In this document: positions 28,946 to 62,264 of the stretch, one piece after another
How the letters are laid out: each line of letters opens with the position of its first letter
How positions within the stretch are numbered: position 1 is the first letter of the stretch
Sequence record: OY720021
Direction: 5' to 3' (one strand)
Length of the DNA: 64,000 nt
Source of the DNA: Escherichia phage vB_Eco_Solly
The notes under the pieces: model-generated
Seen by the model: the letters and a program-made list of their open reading frames with translations, nothing else
What the model was told of the DNA's origin: nothing
Database searches by the model: none
Translations under genes and position numbers: made by a program

Positions 28946-30360
<1,415 letters not shown>

Positions 30361-31792: not shown

Positions 31793-33380
<1,588 letters not shown>

Positions 33381-33407: not shown

Positions 33408-34586
33408 TTAAAAGTATTTTTTAAAACTCATCATAACTTTATCATCAACATCATTATCAATCTGTGCAACAAGATAAGATGACAGTTCTACTTCTTGTGG
33501 CGCGGATTGAACATTATCAGAATTAAGATATTCACGAATCCAAGGATATGGATGTTTAACCGGAGCATCGGTAATTGGGTATGGAAGACCACACTGTTTC
33601 ATACGAGATACAGTTAAGTAATCAATAAAGCTCCACATGCTATTTGTATTTAATCCAGGAACATCGCCATCTTTAAATAAATGAACTGCCCAATCTTTTT
33701 CTTGGCGGTTAACTTCCATGAAAATATCAACTGCTTCTTGTTCACACTCTTGAGCAATTTTAACCCATTCATCGCCGTCAGTGCCAAGTTGAAGTTGACG
33801 AATAATATATTGGGTGCCTTTAAGATGAAGCTGCTCATCACGTGCAATGAACTTCATAATCTTGGCATTACCTTCCATGATTTCCATGTTCTTATGGAAG
33901 TTAAAGGTACATGCGAAAGATACATAAAAACGAATAGCTTCCAATGCGTTGATTACATGCAAGCAGAGGTAAAGACATTTCATTAAAGCACGTTTAGCTT
34001 CGACTTCTTGTTTAATAGCTCGGTTTAAACGAAAGTCGGCATCGGGAGATTCTTTAGCTAGTTCTACAAATTCTTTAGCATTTTCCCATTCACGGGTTTT
34101 AGTCAGAACATCATCATAATAGCGTCCAATAGATTCGGCTCGTTTCATGATTGCTTCATCTAATACAATCTCATCAAATACCTTCGATGGATCAGTATAA
34201 AGATTTCGCATGATATGTGTATATGAACGACTGTGAATAGTTTCACTAAAAGTCCATGTAGCAACCCATGTATCAAGACTTGGGTCTGAAATTAACGACA
34301 TAAGTACAGCAGACGGTGCACGACCCTGAATGCTATCTAGAAGTGATTGATACTTCAGGTTATTAGTAAAAATATCTTGCTGATATTGAGGAAGCTTGTT
34401 AAATTGCGCAGCATCCATCATTAAGTTTACTTCTTCAGGACGCCAGAAAAATGACAACTGCTTTTCGGTTAAATCTTCAAAAACTTTATGACGTTGAATA
34501 TCATAACGCGCAATACCAAGACCTGAACCAAAAAACATAGGTTCTTTTAAAACATCAACTGGATTTGTATTAAAAACTGTGCTCAT
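33408..34586 (-). CDS. nrdB: Ribonucleotide reductase small subunit, uninterrupted
   Basis: 392 aa continuous ORF; no intron. Confidence 0.9.
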   Translation of the reverse strand: MSTVFNTNPVDVLKEPMFFGSGLGIARYDIQRHKVFEDLTEKQLSFFWRPEEVNLMMDAAQFNKLPQYQQDIFTNNLKYQSLLDSIQGRAPSAVLMSLISDPSLDTWVATWTFSETIHSRSYTHIMRNLYTDPSKVFDEIVLDEAIMKRAESIGRYYDDVLTKTREWENAKEFVELAKESPDADFRLNRAIKQEVEAKRALMKCLYLCLHVINALEAIRFYVSFACTFNFHKNMEIMEGNAKIMKFIARDEQLHLKGTQYIIRQLQLGTDGDEWVKIAQECEQEAVDIFMEVNRQEKDWAVHLFKDGDVPGLNTNSMWSFIDYLTVSRMKQCGLPYPITDAPVKHPYPWIREYLNSDNVQSAPQEVELSSYLVAQIDNDVDDKVMMSFKKYF

Positions 34587-37219: not shown

Positions 37220-37436
37220 ATTGTTTTTCCGTTAATACAGTAATATCATAGTAACAATCGGAAGAAGTTTTAACTGTGGAAATTTTATTATCAAAATACT
37301 CACGAGTCATTTTATGAGTATAGTATTTTTTACCATAAATGGTAATAGGCTGTTCTGGTCCTGGAACTTCTAACTCGCTTGGGTTAGGAAGTGTAAAAAG
37401 AACAACGCCAGAAGTATCTTTAAATCGTAAAATCAT
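37173..37436 (-). CDS. Hypothetical protein (nrdA.2-like)
   Basis: 87 aa; stop overlaps td start. Confidence 0.5.
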
Positions 37437-38293
37437 ATTGCCATTTTCCCTTTAATTGCCGGATGCGATTCATAATTTTCAAGGATAAAATCTTTCGGTT
37501 TCATGTATTCAGTTAACCAGTAAAGCTGTGTTTCGGTGTCACAATTTCCAAACTCTATAGGCCAATCAATTTTAAGTTCACACAGTTCTTTAGGCTCACG
37601 ACGTAAAATTTCTTTACATTGTTCTACGTGATTCATATAGATATGAGTATTACCACCAGAAAATATCAAATCTCCTGGGATAAGATTACACATCTTAGCC
37701 ATAATATGCGTCAAGGCAGCGTACGAGGCAATGTTGAATGGCAAGCCCAAGAAAACATCTACACTTCTTTGGTACCACTGTAAATCAAGATAACCATTAC
37801 GCACATTAAACTGATAGAACATATGACAGGGTGGTAATGCCATTTGATTGATTTCAGCTGGATTCCATGCTGAAACGATTTGACGTCGATCAGTTGGTAA
37901 TTTTTTAATACGATCAATAGTTTCAACTAATTGATCCACACCACCGAAATCACGCCATTGTTTACCATATATAGGACCCAGTTCACCACTATGATATCCT
38001 AGGTCTTTAGCTTGGTTTTCATAATTGTCATCCCAGATAGTTTTACCTTGAATAAGACTACCGTGAGTAAGAAGACGTAAATCATTAACATTGGTAGAAC
38101 CGGAAATAAACCATAAAAGCTCAGCAATGCATGCATTCCAGGCGAGCTTCTTAGTTGTTACTGCAGGAAAACCTTTACTTAAATCCCAGCGTAATTTAGT
38201 ACCGAACAAAGCAATTGTTCCTGTGCCCGTTCGGTCATCGGTTTCATAGCCATTTTCAAAAATGTCTTTAATTAAATCTTGGTATTGTTTCAT
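37433..38293 (-). CDS. td: Thymidylate synthase, uninterrupted
   Basis: 286 aa continuous ORF; active-site [12 protein letters not shown]; no group I intron. Confidence 0.95.
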
Positions 38294-57168: not shown

Positions 57169-57804
57169 TCACAGTTCAGATGCTACAGTGATTACAGCTT
57201 CAATGTTTTCTGCCGAGCGTTTAATGTCAAGATACACATTACCGTTTTTAGCGATTTTACATGACATTCCGATGTCAGTAAATTTCTGAATATGATGTTC
57301 CATCATTTTGTATCCAAAAATTCGCATATTTCCGTTGTTGTTAATTTCAAAATTACGAATTCCGTGAGTGCGTTTTTCTAAAATAGCGAGATAGTTACTG
57401 CGATAAGTTTCAACCTTTTTAAGAACAAATCCATTTTCATCTAAAAGTTTTAACATGAGGTCTTTATCTTCTTCCATATCTGAAGTAATCTCGCGAGCTT
57501 TACGAGTTGCTCGTTTTTTCAGTAGTTCCGGAGCATTTTCCTGTGCATATAAAGTTGCTGCATTTGAAATAATATCCTGAGCTTCACCTGTAATGATTAA
57601 TCCATCACCAGATTTCTCCACTAGGCCTTTTTTAATCAATACCCCAATATTACTATTAACTACTGCGTTACCTAAATCTGGATGTACCTCACGAACTTCT
57701 GCAGCTGTAATGAAATCTTTCTTAGCAATAGTAATTAAAATCGCAGCAGTTTTTTCATTCAGAACATCGTTAGAAGCTTTGATGATGTAAGTTACTTTAG
57801 ACAT
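57169..57804 (-). CDS. motA: Middle-transcription activator MotA
   Basis: 211 aa; preceded by early promoter cassette 57846..57908. Confidence 0.85.
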   Translation of the reverse strand: MSKVTYIIKASNDVLNEKTAAILITIAKKDFITAAEVREVHPDLGNAVVNSNIGVLIKKGLVEKSGDGLIITGEAQDIISNAATLYAQENAPELLKKRATRKAREITSDMEEDKDLMLKLLDENGFVLKKVETYRSNYLAILEKRTHGIRNFEINNNGNMRIFGYKMMEHHIQKFTDIGMSCKIAKNGNVYLDIKRSAENIEAVITVASEL

Positions 57805-57845
57805 TTTCTAATCTCCGTAATTCTGTATCAGTAGTTGATAGTTGT

Positions 57846-57908
57846 ATAGTACCACAGTATGCTTTGGTTGTAAACCGTTTTGTGAAAAAATTTTTGAAAT
57901 AAAAAAAA
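57846..57908 (-). promoter_or_regulatory. Early promoter with A/T-rich UP element upstream of motA
   Basis: About 66 bp identical to 40517..40582. Confidence 0.6.
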
Positions 57909-57933
57909 GGGAGAGCCTCGGCTCTCCCTAAAA

Positions 57934-58083
57934 TTACTGCATGACTGTGATAACTGTCATGATAACACGTTGAATTCCGAACGCAAGAAGACCTCCTGCT
58001 ACGGCAGGAACAACACCTAACCCCGCCAGTAAAATGCCACCGGATACTAATGCGGCGCTTGTAATACCAATGAATGGACTCAT
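57934..58083 (-). CDS. Small hydrophobic membrane protein (49 aa), below ORF-track threshold
   Basis: Manual translation MSPFIGITSAALVSGGILLAGLGVVPAVAGG...; ATG overlaps gene 52 stop. Confidence 0.35.
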   Translation of the reverse strand: MSPFIGITSAALVSGGILLAGLGVVPAVAGGLLAFGIQRVIMTVITVMQ

Positions 58084-59408
58084 TTGATTTCCTCTAAATC
58101 TTTAGTGTATTCGGTAACTACATCAGTAGTTTTCCAATATTCGTTTTCTTCTTTTTTGGCTTTAGCTTCTTCAGCAAGTTTCTTTGCTTCGTCGGAAGTC
58201 ATATGAAAAATGTTCATTCCAACTAGTTTATCAACATAAGAAGAATACATATCAATTTTAGAAAGTTCTTCTGTCAGCTCTTTACGAGTTTTACCTTGTA
58301 CAACAATTTCACCTGAAATTACTTTCTTAATGAAATGTGCCTTGGCAAAAGCTAAACGAAATGCTGATTCAGTTTCTTTGATTTTGTTATCAATTCGTTT
58401 TTGGACATAAGTTTTACGAACTTCAACGAAGTCTTTGATTAAATCAACTACGTTATCGTAAACTTGCAGCTTTCCTTTCTCATTAATGACGGTAATATTC
58501 TGGGAACGACGCTCAATCAAGCCGAAGTCTTTCATAATTTTTGCATGGCGTTCTTCTTCGTTATCACTCAAAGAGTATTCTTTACGGAATTTAACTTTGA
58601 AGCCAAAACCATGCTCACCGCAAGCATCATCCCACGTAATGAAGCCTTTATCTTCAAGCGGGTCTAAGATTTTACTCACATAAGTTTCACGATCATACTT
58701 ATACGGAATCTCAGTGATATTCATTTGAGTTCGTGAAGTAAACTTGTACGTTCCACGAATTTCATATTGACCGTCAATTTCAACGACTTCACCACGAAAT
58801 TCTGGGAATTCTACCTTCGGTTTAGTTACTTTCTTTCCTTGAAGAGCTTGCAGTACAGCTTTCTTGACAGAAGAAACGCTATGAGGAAGAATGTAAGTTG
58901 CATAACCAGTTGCAATACCGGAAACACCATTAAGAAGAACAGTAGGAATAATAGGCAAATAGAAAGCAGGCGGAATGTGTTCTTTATCTTGATGTACCGG
59001 AGCATATTCAGTATCTTTATATACATTATAGAAATTTTTACTTACACGAGCAAAAATATAACGACTTGCCGCTGCTTTTTGAACGGTACGAGAACCAAAG
59101 TTTCCTTGACCATCTAACAAAGGAAAGTTATTATTCCAAGTGTTAGCCATCAAAGCACCTGCGTCTTGTGCAGAGTTTTCACCATGATGATATCCAAGGT
59201 CTGCTACACCACCTGCAATAGAAGCGAGTTTGTGAAACTTATCTTTATTTCCTCGTGCCAAATCAAGAGCTCGAGCAATAACAAATCGTTGAACTGGCTT
59301 AAATCCATCAATCATATTTGGGATAGCACGATTTTCAACCGTGTACATAGCATAAGCCAATGCTTCATTATCAATGATACTTTTTAAATCGCGATTATTC
59401 AGTTGCAT
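58080..59408 (-). CDS. 52: DNA topoisomerase II medium subunit gp52
   Basis: 442 aa, the T4 gp52 length; position between motA and ac. Confidence 0.85.
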   Translation of the reverse strand: MQLNNRDLKSIIDNEALAYAMYTVENRAIPNMIDGFKPVQRFVIARALDLARGNKDKFHKLASIAGGVADLGYHHGENSAQDAGALMANTWNNNFPLLDGQGNFGSRTVQKAAASRYIFARVSKNFYNVYKDTEYAPVHQDKEHIPPAFYLPIIPTVLLNGVSGIATGYATYILPHSVSSVKKAVLQALQGKKVTKPKVEFPEFRGEVVEIDGQYEIRGTYKFTSRTQMNITEIPYKYDRETYVSKILDPLEDKGFITWDDACGEHGFGFKVKFRKEYSLSDNEEERHAKIMKDFGLIERRSQNITVINEKGKLQVYDNVVDLIKDFVEVRKTYVQKRIDNKIKETESAFRLAFAKAHFIKKVISGEIVVQGKTRKELTEELSKIDMYSSYVDKLVGMNIFHMTSDEAKKLAEEAKAKKEENEYWKTTDVVTEYTKDLEEIK

Positions 59409-59545
59409 AAATTTACCATACTAGTGAATGTAGTGCCATAATAACATCAGAAATGAAAAGCACGACTTGAATTAATCCGAACATTACTCCATAATATAGT
59501 GCTACCAATAAAGTAGCAAGGGCTAATGAATAGCCCAAGATTTTC

Positions 59546-59704
59546 TTAATCATTAGTAGATAACAACACAAATGTTAAATATGCACACATACCCTGGGCT
59601 AAAGCTTGTGAAAACACACTGCTAGCATCGATACAGATAGTTAAAACACATGCTACTATCCAACAAACAAATGAAATAACTCCTAATAATTTTGCGATAT
59701 TCAT
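59546..59704 (-). CDS. ac: Ac-like small membrane protein (acridine sensitivity)
   Basis: Manual translation, 52 aa hydrophobic MNIAKLLGVISFVCWIVACVLTICID... Confidence 0.6.
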   Translation of the reverse strand: MNIAKLLGVISFVCWIVACVLTICIDASSVFSQALAQGMCAYLTFVLLSTND

Positions 59705-59711
59705 ATTTTCC

Positions 59712-59792
59712 TCACTGGCGTCCGAAGACGCCTTTGGTTTTAAGATTGTTACGATAGAACTGCATCACATGTTCGTTATGGAAATTACTCAT
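59712..59792 (-). CDS. stp: Stp peptide (26 aa)
   Basis: Manual translation gives [26 protein letters not shown], the T4 Stp peptide as recalled. Confidence 0.8.
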
Positions 59793-59958
59793 ACACACCA
59801 CACATTTTGCATAAACGTTCAAAACAGATAAATCCGCCACCTACACACATCACGACAGCCACATTATCATTAAGAGGTAGACCTAAAGCCGTAAAGATTC
59901 CAGTCAATGTGAATAAGGCTAAAACTAATAGGTAACCCATTACAAATAGAGCTTTCAT
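59785..59958 (-). CDS. Small hydrophobic membrane protein (57 aa), below ORF-track threshold
   Basis: Manual translation [22 protein letters not shown]...; ATG overlaps ndd stop. Confidence 0.35.
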
Positions 59959-60416
59959 TAGTATGCCTGCAAAACAAATTTAAAGTTATCAGCTAACATA
60001 CGGTTCATTTCTTCAAGTGTTTGATACTCAGAATGATGATTACGAGTAAACGCTAAAGCTAACTGTCCTTTTCCAAATCCCGTCGTCAGAGGTTTCATCT
60101 TAGAAGCAGGCAGATAAAATACTGTGTATACCATATTGTTATTTGCAATAGTACGTGCAAGCTGAGACCGACGTTGACGAATATGACTTAGAACTGCACT
60201 GAATCCTTGCTTAGAACGCTGATTACCTACATAAAATCGTGCAGACACACATGGATTACTAAATGGACGACCATCTAATTTACTTACTAAAAAGTAAAAT
60301 CCAGGTTTAGATAAAATATCTTTATGCGGAGTTCCCAAAAACCACTCACCACCCTTGATTGTACCAATAACAGTTGCGCCTGCATTATTCAGATCAGTAA
60401 CAGTCATATATTTCAT
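59958..60416 (-). CDS. ndd: Nucleoid disruption protein Ndd
   Basis: 152 aa from ATG 60416 (MKYMTVTDL...) with SD GAGGAAA; track start is an upstream extension. Confidence 0.8.
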
Positions 60417-60476
60417 ATTAATTTCCTCTAAATTATTTTCTACTCCAAGGCCGCATGAATACACGCGGCCATTAAA

Positions 60477-60692
60477 TTAATCGTCGCAGTCGACGCTCAA
60501 TTCCCAAAACTCTTCTACGGTATAAGTTTCAGTATCATTTTCAATACAAAAACGTTCATTACTGTTATTTGCTAAAGTAGCATTAACTGTCGGTTTCTCG
60601 CTAGTGCTCTTAAGAGGTGAAATGCGAATTAACTGATCACCGTTATCTAAACAGAAAATTTCACCAACTTTTACATCTTTAAAACTTTTCAT
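60477..60692 (-). CDS. Hypothetical protein
   Basis: 71 aa ORF. Confidence 0.45.
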   Translation of the reverse strand: MKSFKDVKVGEIFCLDNGDQLIRISPLKSTSEKPTVNATLANNSNERFCIENDTETYTVEEFWELSVDCDD

Positions 60693-60807
60693 AATTCACC
60701 TCAAGGAGTATAAAATCCAAATGCAGTTGTTGACCATCCCATCCAATATGGAAAATTTGCACCAATGTAAAACATAAGAATATAAAACCAAATGTTTAGT
60801 AAATTCA

Positions 60808-61026
60808 TTATTTTACACCATTCCAAATTGTTTCAACTACAGATTTTAAGCCATTTTGATGAATGTCCATTCCGACTACCGCCATCAAATAGATTCCAAC
60901 TACAACTGAACCTAAGGCAAAAATCAGCATGAAAATGAATAAAGCCGGAAAAATATTATCGAAAAACCATTCAATAAATGTAAAAGCACTACGCTTACGT
61001 TTCATATTTTCCTCACATAAATCCAA
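60808..61026 (-). CDS. Small membrane protein
   Basis: 72 aa ORF with hydrophobic core FPALFIFMLIFALGSVVVGIYLMAVVG. Confidence 0.4.
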   Translation of the reverse strand: MDLCEENMKRKRSAFTFIEWFFDNIFPALFIFMLIFALGSVVVGIYLMAVVGMDIHQNGLKSVVETIWNGVK

Positions 61027-61126
61027 AATAAGCGTTTAACATATCAATCATTAAAACGATTGGGAATATACTCAAAACTATTAGTATTATAACTACATTC
61101 CATATAGCTTTAACAATCTTTTTCAT
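61013..61126 (-). CDS. Small membrane protein (37 aa from internal ATG)
   Basis: MKKIVKAIWNVVIILIVLSIFPIVLM...; strong SD GGAGGAA; early promoter 61155..61184. Confidence 0.4.
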   Translation of the reverse strand: MKKIVKAIWNVVIILIVLSIFPIVLMIDMLNAYFGFM

Positions 61127-61154
61127 TTTCTGTTCCTCCGTAGTTGATAGGGTA

Positions 61155-61184
61155 ATAGTACCACGGAAGAACAGTCCTGTAAAC
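61155..61184 (-). promoter_or_regulatory. Early promoter
   Basis: Minus strand GTTTAC, 18-nt spacer, TACTAT, then GGAGGAA SD. Confidence 0.55.
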
Positions 61185-61368
61185 AACTTTTTAAAAATAT
61201 TCGTAATAAATGTGAATACCAACTACTACCGCTGAAACCTGTGCAACCCACCACGCACAAGCAATAAGTACAGAATTCAAAATTTTCATAATAACCTCAT
61301 CACAAAAGTAAATGTTAAACAAATTACTGGAATACTAATTAACCAAACAAAACACCACCATAATGAAC

Positions 61369-61632
61369 TCATAGTTCAATCTCAATGATTTCAAGATTAT
61401 TTTCTTTAATAGCTTTCTTTAAATCATCGTAAATAAGAACTTCCCAAGAATTGTTTAAATCACCATTCAACAAACGCTCTTGTTGCAATTTATCAGTAAG
61501 ATACGGTTGATCTGATTCATATTTAGACAATCCCAATGAAATAAATGATGTTGCATCGTCAATTTCAGAATATTGTACATGAACAAATTCACCTGTGATT
61601 TTATGTTTAACATAAAAGAATTTAAATTTCAT
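61369..61632 (-). CDS. Hypothetical protein
   Basis: 87 aa; SD GGAGGAG; early promoter 61661..61690. Confidence 0.5.
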   Translation of the reverse strand: MKFKFFYVKHKITGEFVHVQYSEIDDATSFISLGLSKYESDQPYLTDKLQQERLLNGDLNNSWEVLIYDDLKKAIKENNLEIIEIEL

Positions 61633-61660
61633 TTTCCGCTCCTCCGTAGTTGATAGTTGT

Positions 61661-61690
61661 ATAGTACCACGGTCCTTGTGGTATGTAAAC
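61661..61690 (-). promoter_or_regulatory. Early promoter
   Basis: Minus strand GTTTAC, 18-nt spacer, TACTAT, then GGAGGAG SD. Confidence 0.55.
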
Positions 61691-61706
61691 TAGTTTATGA
61701 AAATTT

Positions 61707-62264
61707 TTAGATGGAAAGATACCAGCCGTTGTAGTTGCTTTTTCTTACAACCTTACGAAGGTCTTCTCTATCACCAATGAACTTCGGAGTGTACTGGATG
61801 ACACCTGGATGAATTTCTTTAGTGTTGAATATAATTATACAGTCCGCGACCTGGTGATTTAGAATGGGCCCTAGATTTATTCCAGAACCATATGGATACT
61901 CTCCGCTGCATCCCGTTGTTACCGAAATCCAACGCGAGTCAGTTTGATGTGTCTTAACTTCTACACGGAGCCCACAGTATTTTGGATGCGCCAAAACATC
62001 CCATGCATACGTGTACGGATCATCGACATCTTCTTGACCTTTGTTAACATATCCACTCAACCAATCTGCTACCACATACTCGGCATACACAGCAATACGG
62101 CATCTTTCGATAACTTCTGCCTTATCCTGATTTGGGTTTTGTTTTAAAGAGTATCTTGCAGTATCAGCAATTTTGACCTTCATTTCACTAGTCAAGTCAC
62201 TGTTCGATAGGGTAAATGTCGGAATCTGAAATAGTCTCTGTAGCCCCGGATTCGTTTTCTGCAT
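61707..62264 (-). CDS. denB: Endonuclease IV
   Basis: 185 aa, the T4 DenB length; position next to rIIB. Confidence 0.7.
   Translation of the reverse strand: MQKTNPGLQRLFQIPTFTLSNSDLTSEMKVKIADTARYSLKQNPNQDKAEVIERCRIAVYAEYVVADWLSGYVNKGQEDVDDPYTYAWDVLAHPKYCGLRVEVKTHQTDSRWISVTTGCSGEYPYGSGINLGPILNHQVADCIIIFNTKEIHPGVIQYTPKFIGDREDLRKVVRKSNYNGWYLSI

Follow-up and report, generated by a model that had tools for sequence, protein, structure and literature searches.

A T4-type string of micro-genes between ndd and motA in Escherichia phage vB_Eco_Solly, including stp, ac and a predicted small membrane protein that T4 lacks

Introduction

In the reference genome of phage T4 (NC_000866) the annotated gene order is motA, motA.1, 52, 52.1, ac, stp, ndd. 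The product of stp has been defined both genetically and biochemically (PMC3014915). It is necessary and sufficient to activate PrrC, a latent anticodon nuclease for tRNA-Lys, in prr+ E. coli, and its target is the PrrC-associated type Ic enzyme EcoprrI, whose restriction it inhibits; EcoR124I is also inhibited, but type Ia enzymes are not (PMC3014915, PMC1484252, PMC12707154). Activation of PrrC requires GTP hydrolysis, dTTP and DNA, the cleaved tRNA is mended by T4 Pnk and Rnl1, and loss of the eight C-terminal codons of stp has only a moderate effect (PMC3014915, PMC1484252, PMC12707154). The activity resides in residues 1-18, with suppressor mutations clustered at positions 4-14 (PMC3014915). 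This role was assayed for the T4 peptide, in the E. coli CTr5X and EcoR124I systems.

The neighbouring gene ac encodes a 51-aa membrane protein in T4, the presence of which makes infection sensitive to acriflavine and the loss of which confers resistance (10.1101/2025.06.30.662393; PMC13250531). Interference of Ac with AcrAB-TolC efflux has been proposed, a proposal that rests partly on structure prediction (2025 preprint 10.1101/2025.06.30.662393; cited in PMC13250531).

Here we analyse the corresponding region of Escherichia phage vB_Eco_Solly, using a 64,000-nt stretch of sequence record OY720021 (hereafter the window). We conclude with high confidence that the region is an ordinary T4-type gene string, ndd-(orf57)-stp-ac-52.1-52-motA.1, in an ime09-type Tequatrovirus. 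A first-pass annotation of the same DNA had proposed three unannotated micro-genes between gene 52 and ndd. All three exist, but there are in fact four, since 52.1 had been overlooked, and they were unannotated only in the ORF track used for that reading: the T4 record has stp, ac, 52.1 and motA.1, and the ime09-type phages annotate the 57-codon frame, here called orf57, as a hypothetical protein.

Results

Order, coordinates and junctions of the gene string

We read the minus strand of positions 57700-60700, enumerated all ORFs of at least 20 codons, and verified translations and start contexts. Seven genes follow one another on this strand. The first is ndd (59958..60416), which encodes the nucleoid disruption protein (152 aa from its ATG), followed by orf57 (59785..59958; 57 aa, MKALFVMGY...CGVYE), a predicted two-helix membrane micro-protein, stp (59712..59792; 26 aa) and ac (59546..59704), which encodes a 52-aa membrane protein. 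Next come 52.1 (59413..59553), a predicted membrane protein of 46 aa if translation starts at the ATG overlapping the ac stop, gene 52 (58080..59408; 442 aa), annotated in related records as the DNA topoisomerase II medium subunit, and finally motA.1 (57934..58083), the product of which is hydrophobic and 49 aa long. Five of these products are shorter than 60 aa, consistent with the earlier remark that such frames fall below the length cutoff of the ORF track.

The packing is tight. From the ndd ATG to the motA.1 stop the string spans 2,483 nt, of which just 11 bases are non-coding between genes (7 nt separate stp from ac, and 4 nt separate 52.1 from 52), and neighbouring genes overlap at four of the six junctions, by 1, 8, 8 and 4 nt. 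Specifically, the ATG of orf57 has one base in common with the ndd stop (TAATG); the last 8 nt of orf57 overlap the start of stp (ATGAGTAA); 8 nt are shared by the 52.1 start and the ac stop (ATGATTAA); and the motA.1 ATG lies in the gene 52 stop, with a 4-nt overlap (ATGA). A clear GAGG Shine-Dalgarno sequence precedes ac (7 nt 5' of the ATG) and motA.1. Ahead of orf57, stp and 52.1 such a sequence is weak or lacking, from which we infer that these three are translated by coupling to the gene upstream; translation within the string would thus be partially coupled.

A single transcript would probably serve the whole string, starting at early-type promoters 5' of ndd, where promoter-like sites lie at 60955-61183, and ending at a terminator-like hairpin after motA.1 (57908..57929, minus strand; 9 bp, six of them G-C, followed by a T-run). 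In a terminator scan this hairpin was the sole convincing terminator on the minus strand, and it closes the string from ndd to motA.1. Both the early-type promoter of motA and motA itself (57169..57804) come after it, and the record of phage SA21RB has a terminator and a promoter annotated at the equivalent position. In the literature we found nothing usable on the promoters of this string, nor on ribosome profiling of T4 micro-genes.

A second hairpin, GGCGUC-UUCG-GACGCC (59717..59732, minus strand), lies within the final codons of stp (..GVFGRQ), with 6 nt between it and the downstream Shine-Dalgarno sequence of ac (GAGG); its 6-bp stem is kept in the RNA fold. The SA21RB record labels it a terminator. 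This label is doubtful because no U-run comes after the hairpin on the coding strand; the terminator scan called the hairpin on the plus strand only, and the ribosome-binding site of ac follows 6 nt past the stem. A stable C(UUCG)G structure, of the kind that is classically found in T4 mRNAs, is the preferable reading. A search against Rfam returned no family at gathering score anywhere in the 64,000 nt of the window, and a weak CrcZ fragment at 57885-57934 is simply the terminator hairpin after motA.1.

Relatives of the region

Compared by megablast with 50,697 phage records, positions 57800-60500 have a match in 753, and in 487 of these 80% or more of the query is covered at one place. The best matches, ime09-type Tequatroviruses, are 97% identical, and no identical record for the whole 2.7 kb was found among the 50,697.

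The larger proteins are very close to those of T4: identical residues number 440 of 442 for gp52, 207 of 211 for MotA and 147 of 152 aligned positions for Ndd, which also matches the Pfam family PF06591 (Phage_T4_Ndd) with E=1.6e-94. The small ones are no less so. The 52-aa frame that had been described as Ac-like contains 50 of the 51 residues of T4 Ac (NP_049877) plus one inserted Thr, matches phrog_2501 over its full length (E=1e-24), lies just upstream of 52.1 and 52, and is hydrophobic (GRAVY 1.41; over 15 residues its hydropathy peaks at 2.75); judged by its sequence it is a true Ac orthologue. The 49-aa frame reported to overlap the gene 52 stop, which it does through the ATGA junction, is MotA.1 (48 of 49 residues identical to NP_049874; phrog_3487, E=7e-31), with the terminator downstream of the gene. 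The overlooked gp52.1 is identical to its T4 counterpart at 45 of 46 positions and matches PF24129 (DUF7396) with 81.9 bits against a cutoff of 27, and also phrog_3595. Both gp52.1 and MotA.1 are small hydrophobic proteins. Pfam has no family for Ac, MotA.1 or orf57, and NCBIfam gave no match for any of the five micro-proteins. For these gene identifications we found no contrary evidence.

orf57, a conserved and predicted small membrane protein

The first-pass annotation also described a hydrophobic 57-aa ORF whose ATG overlaps the ndd stop, and orf57 agrees with this description, reading TAATG at its start and being strongly hydrophobic (GRAVY 1.34); it has no T4 counterpart. The protein matches phrog_5941 (E=2.1e-27) with all 57 of 57 positions aligned, and orf57 is thus a member of an already catalogued phage family, PHROG 5941, for which neither Pfam nor NCBIfam offers a model and which carries no functional annotation. 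By tblastn we located it in 221 phage records at 38-100% identity: 21 records at 90% or more, 15 at 60-80%, and 185, mostly Klebsiella phages, below 60%. Most rows of this listing have Ndd at or beside the match. We opened six of the loci, those of phages SholemSchwarzbard, SA21RB, JK23, Mineola (Jiaodavirus), X20 (Winklervirus) and EI (Marfavirus), and in all six orf57 directly follows ndd and precedes small membrane genes and gene 52. The gene directly follows ndd in at least five phage genera; for four of these the opened loci confirm it.

The homologues are 57 aa long, or 61 aa with an N-terminal extension, and across 19 sequences eight residues are invariant (M1, Y9, G20, G26, F46, E47, R48 and G54). 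Comparisons between genera give pS values of 0.67-0.89, near or at saturation, but pN values of only 0.28-0.48. Saturated synonymous sites together with a lower pN mark a gene that is translated and subject to purifying selection. An AlphaFold2 model built with the homologue alignment has two helices, residues 2-24 and 31-52, joined by a short loop (mean pLDDT 78). Basic residues lie at both ends of the protein and an acidic residue in the loop, a charge pattern suggestive of a hairpin in the inner membrane whose two termini face the cytoplasm. We regard orf57 as a real gene, the product of which is predicted to be a small membrane protein folded into a helical hairpin.

Sequence and profile searches for orf57 in 5.8 billion proteins returned 19 relatives, none with an informative name; those that are named, and those on long contigs, belong to T4-like phages. 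One relative, in ESCO10, carries the label 'sliding clamp', an evident mis-assignment. A Pfam match to TadB/TadC is sub-threshold (14 bits against a cutoff of 27). Some records list two 'acridine resistance' genes, and we considered orf57 as a paralogue of Ac, which profile comparison rejects (hhalign probability 0.2%); the second Ac copy of TB37-type phages lies between stp and ac and is a gene unrelated to this question.

Our best guess is that orf57 is an accessory inner-membrane factor of host takeover that is co-expressed with Ndd. It might act together with Ndd, as a functional partner or as a membrane tether, or be an independent small membrane effector, for example in anti-defence or exclusion. 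In this reading it would be coupled in translation to ndd in at least five phage genera, and its loss from T4 would explain why classical T4 genetics missed it. We rate this more ambitious reading, like the separate one of Stp as a general peptide against type Ic restriction, as conceivable but rather unlikely.

The uneven occurrence of orf57 could alternatively reflect a recent insertion restricted to this phage lineage, either a moron or what is left of a mobile element. T4 and most Tequatroviruses are without the gene. By megablast, 550 records match the stp region, and 32 of these cover at least 80% of the orf57+stp stretch (three of them at 100% identity); in the alignment with T4 the difference is a clean, ATGA-flanked indel of 166 nt, which extends from the start codon of orf57 to that of stp. 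However, the place directly after ndd is taken by homologues of 57-61 aa in Jiaodavirus, Winklervirus, Marfavirus and a second Tequatrovirus lineage (JK23), and phage JS98 carries the orf57+stp stretch at 85% identity (megablast). The divergence among homologues is deep, with dS saturated, and no nuclease or transposase is associated with the gene. Loss from the T4 lineage, or recombinational exchange, is the simpler reading, and we consider a recent insertion improbable. Since VR7 lacks orf57 as T4 does, we take the gene for an old presence/absence polymorphism in the ndd-52 string, and for no novelty of this genome.

The Stp peptide

The first-pass annotation had assigned the 26-codon frame to T4 Stp, and the assignment proved exact: pairwise alignment with T4 Stp (NP_049878) gives 26 identical residues out of 26, without the mismatch that had been named as the possible refutation. 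The peptide scores 75.3 bits against the Pfam family PF08133 (Nuclease_act, 'Anticodon nuclease activator family'; cutoff 25, E=2e-21), matching all profile positions, 1-26 of 26, and it also matches phrog_6763 (E=4.4e-21). The gene is a stand-alone micro-ORF between ndd and ac, 7 nt upstream of the latter. To the extent that identity of sequence can decide, the 26-residue product is Stp itself. Most public T4-like records leave Stp unannotated; for most of the exact tblastn matches, ndd is the only feature at that place. An apparent match to 'Stp' in the literature was the host protein StpA.

The reading frame is open beyond the ATG, and we considered whether Stp might be longer than 26 aa, starting at an upstream GTG and giving a product of 29 or 42 aa. 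In the ORF listing the frame can be extended to a GTG at 59840, which corresponds to 42 aa, and one automated record (PP925840) has a 90-nt stp CDS, i.e., 29 aa. However, the similarity to T4, TB37 and VR7 starts exactly at the stp ATG, and the sequence 5' of it is ndd coding sequence in those three phages and orf57 coding sequence here. The Stp-like ORFs of siphoviruses (see below) also begin at the aligned ATG, with strong Shine-Dalgarno sequences. Because homology begins at the ATG, the PF08133 model has 26 positions, all of them matched, and the active T4 peptide is a 26-mer (PMC3014915), we reject the longer GTG-initiated forms as highly improbable and retain the 26-residue peptide.

The window also encodes both members of the tRNA repair pair, on the minus strand. 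The 'healing' enzyme Pnk, a polynucleotide kinase/3'-phosphatase of 301 aa, is encoded by pseT (29135..30040; PF25109 HAD_PNKP, E=3.6e-59; AAA_33, E=2.9e-23), and the 'sealing' enzyme Rnl1, RNA ligase 1 of 374 aa, by rnlA, or gene 63 (31793..32917; PF20819 T4_Rnl1_C, E=1.7e-39; PF09511, E=8.9e-26), which contains the KEDGSL motif.

Members of the Stp family, peptides of 25-27 aa, also occur, unannotated, in several siphoviruses (Kagunavirus, Nouzillyvirus, Segzyvirus and Skatevirus), all scoring above the Pfam cutoff. The genome records of these phages do not suggest T4-style hypermodification of their DNA.

Finally, the short frames might have arisen by chance in an AT-rich spacer separating ndd from gene 52 and not be genes at all. 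This idea draws on the frequency with which ORFs of 26-57 codons arise by chance (the same 6-kb stretch has 84 ORFs of at least 20 codons) and on the weak or absent Shine-Dalgarno sequences of several of them, but it is practically negligible and is excluded by family matches and conservation: the ORFs match phage families end to end (E 1e-21 to 7e-31 in PHROGs and Pfam), four of the five have near-identical curated counterparts in T4, one of which, stp, is defined by genetics and biochemistry in T4 (PMC3014915), and orf57 keeps its 57 codons (61 in some phages), its eight invariant residues and its saturated synonymous sites across genera at 40-56% identity.

Discussion

Most of what the string contains is already known: stp, ac, 52.1 and motA.1 are curated T4 genes, and no new biology is implied for the ORFs that the first-pass annotation had flagged. 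The practical lesson is one of annotation, because functional phage genes of 26-57 codons fall under common ORF-length cutoffs. Small openings for experiments are nevertheless offered by orf57 and by the wider spread of Stp-like peptides.

What the peptide does here is best explained by the double-edged role described for T4, since Stp is identical to T4 Stp and both Pnk and Rnl1 are encoded in the window. The N-terminal 18 residues are intact, all 26 being those of T4, and T4-like action is expected because the peptide is the same. By analogy with T4, Stp would bind or inhibit restriction-modification enzymes of type Ic, among them EcoprrI and EcoR124I. In prr hosts this inhibition would unmask PrrC, which would then cut tRNA-Lys 5' of the wobble base, and the phage Pnk and Rnl1 would mend the cleaved tRNA. 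Carrying the two repair enzymes should make Stp tolerable on prr+ hosts. With the complete set of Stp, Pnk and Rnl1, the phage should both provoke and survive the PrrC anticodon-nuclease defence. Likewise, if its Ac behaves as that of T4, the phage should be sensitive to acriflavine.

The siphovirus peptides bear on how general this function is. Stp may be a general anti-restriction peptide directed at type Ic enzymes, with a broader role than its history in T4 suggests. If that is true, anti-restriction by Stp would matter in such siphoviruses, unlike in T4 with its glucosyl-HMC DNA. The unannotated Stp-like micro-ORFs themselves may be a minor point that is new.

Compared with known systems, the Stp locus combines the T4 peptide with a slightly different junction. 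As in T4, stp lies downstream of ndd and 7 nt upstream of ac, and it ends in the same C(UUCG)G hairpin. The hairpin is also the same in TB37, and VR7 has a synonymous change in the loop (UUUG), whereas JK23 and T2 lack it, and there the tails of Stp differ. The T4 stp ATG overlaps the ndd stop, but here orf57 comes between the two genes, and it is the orf57 stop that the stp ATG overlaps. Because stp would thus be coupled to orf57 rather than to ndd, the level of Stp expression could differ from that in T4.

Ac resembles T4 Ac in its position, its Shine-Dalgarno sequence and its hydrophobic character. It differs in being 52 aa long and ending in ..LLSTND, where the 51-aa T4 protein ends in ..LLSND, and in the substitution I13V. 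The 52-aa form is also found in TB37, and the CDS in FelixPlatter is likewise 159 nt. For gp52.1 and MotA.1 the overlaps with neighbouring genes are the same as in T4, with one substitution in each protein.

It is orf57 that sets the arrangement apart from that of T4, and also from that of VR7 (Gaprivervirus), which has the T4-type order without it. The gene is 100% identical in phages ime09, SA21RB, Sf24 and Shfl2, and nothing distinguishes the copy in the window from theirs. The members of PHROG 5941 in JK23, in the Klebsiella phages Mineola and EI, and in the Serratia phage X20 have the same slot, the same TAATG-type overlap and the same predicted two-helix topology.

Organization of the ndd–52 region

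The first-pass annotation had counted three micro-genes between gene 52 and ndd. All three hold up, but the count was one short: a fourth, gp52.1 (59413..59553, minus strand; 46 aa, DUF7396), had been overlooked; 45 of its 46 residues are identical to T4. In the window the ATG of 52.1 lies within the end of ac, and the two genes share 8 nt including the ac stop.

The contents of the ndd–ac interval differ between phages: T4 carries stp alone, the window phage carries stp together with orf57, a 57-aa ORF, and phage TB37 has stp plus a second, diverged Ac paralogue, ac2 (2214-2369 in the TB37 locus, L004; 51 aa, 37% identical). Some Tequatrovirus records, TB37 among them, contain two 'acridine resistance' genes, and since ac2 is inserted in these between stp and ac, the interval is a variable slot.

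Stp itself also varies. The variants of JK23 (L009 1667-1753; 28 aa, tail ..KNFGILGFKNS) and T2 (L012 601-684; 27 aa, tail ..GFKK) are both normal over residues 1-18 and altered in the tail. Because the 3'-end DNA of the JK23 stp variant matches the 3' end of TB37 ac2, the comparison suggests that a deletion linked stp with the terminal part of a gene resembling ac2. In the T2 record (PV958097) we also note that a TAA breaks the ac frame after 10 codons (MNIAKLLGVI*; about 700-830 in L012), and that an ac CDS is absent from the annotation.

Within the window stp, a C(UUCG)G tetraloop hairpin (59717..59732) occupies dispensable C-terminal codons just ahead of the ac ribosome-binding site. On the plus strand it is followed by TTTGGTTTTA, and for that reason it also looks like a weak terminator of antisense transcription.

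Annotation of small genes in public records

Most T4-like genome records in the tblastn listing leave stp unannotated, as does that of TB37, and for most exact stp matches the only underlying feature is ndd, touched by one base. With its 26 codons, stp is routinely missed by automated pipelines. A separate irregularity concerns phage ESCO10 (OM386655.1), where the orf57 homologue (protein P0005; hits H47/H182) bears the name 'sliding clamp' and sits beside genes named 'clamp loader' and 'RNA polymerase binding protein'; product naming in this record looks shifted or mis-assigned.

Stp-like micro-ORFs in siphoviruses

Siphoviruses whose genomes measure 42-50 kb also contain Stp-like micro-ORFs, 25 to 27 aa long and absent from the annotation; the carriers are Kagunavirus, Nouzillyvirus (Drexlerviridae), Segzyvirus, Skatevirus and Salmonella phage KKP 3830 (L010 2501-2578; L011 1975-2052; L014 301-381; L015 301-381; L016 301-384). 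Each starts at the aligned ATG and keeps the core xHNEHxMQxYRxxxK, two are preceded by a TAAGGAG Shine-Dalgarno sequence, and their PF08133 scores of 30.8-65.7 bits all exceed the cutoff of 25 bits. The tblastn listing suggests about 200 records of this kind. A literature search found no mention of Stp beyond the T4-like phages.

Comparison with T4 elsewhere in the window

Group I introns are present in T4 td and nrdB. The window phage appears to be without them, since its nrdB (33408..34586, minus strand; 392 aa) and td (37433..38293, minus strand; 286 aa) each form one unbroken ORF, and across the 64-kb window no Rfam family, group I introns included, reached its gathering score.

Upstream of ndd lies another run of very small minus-strand ORFs (60477..61700), many of them hydrophobic and matching the T4 ndd.1-ndd.6 series by position; most would likewise be missed with a 60-aa ORF cutoff. 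Beyond the run, a 185-aa ORF (61707..62264) would correspond to T4 denB in size and location.
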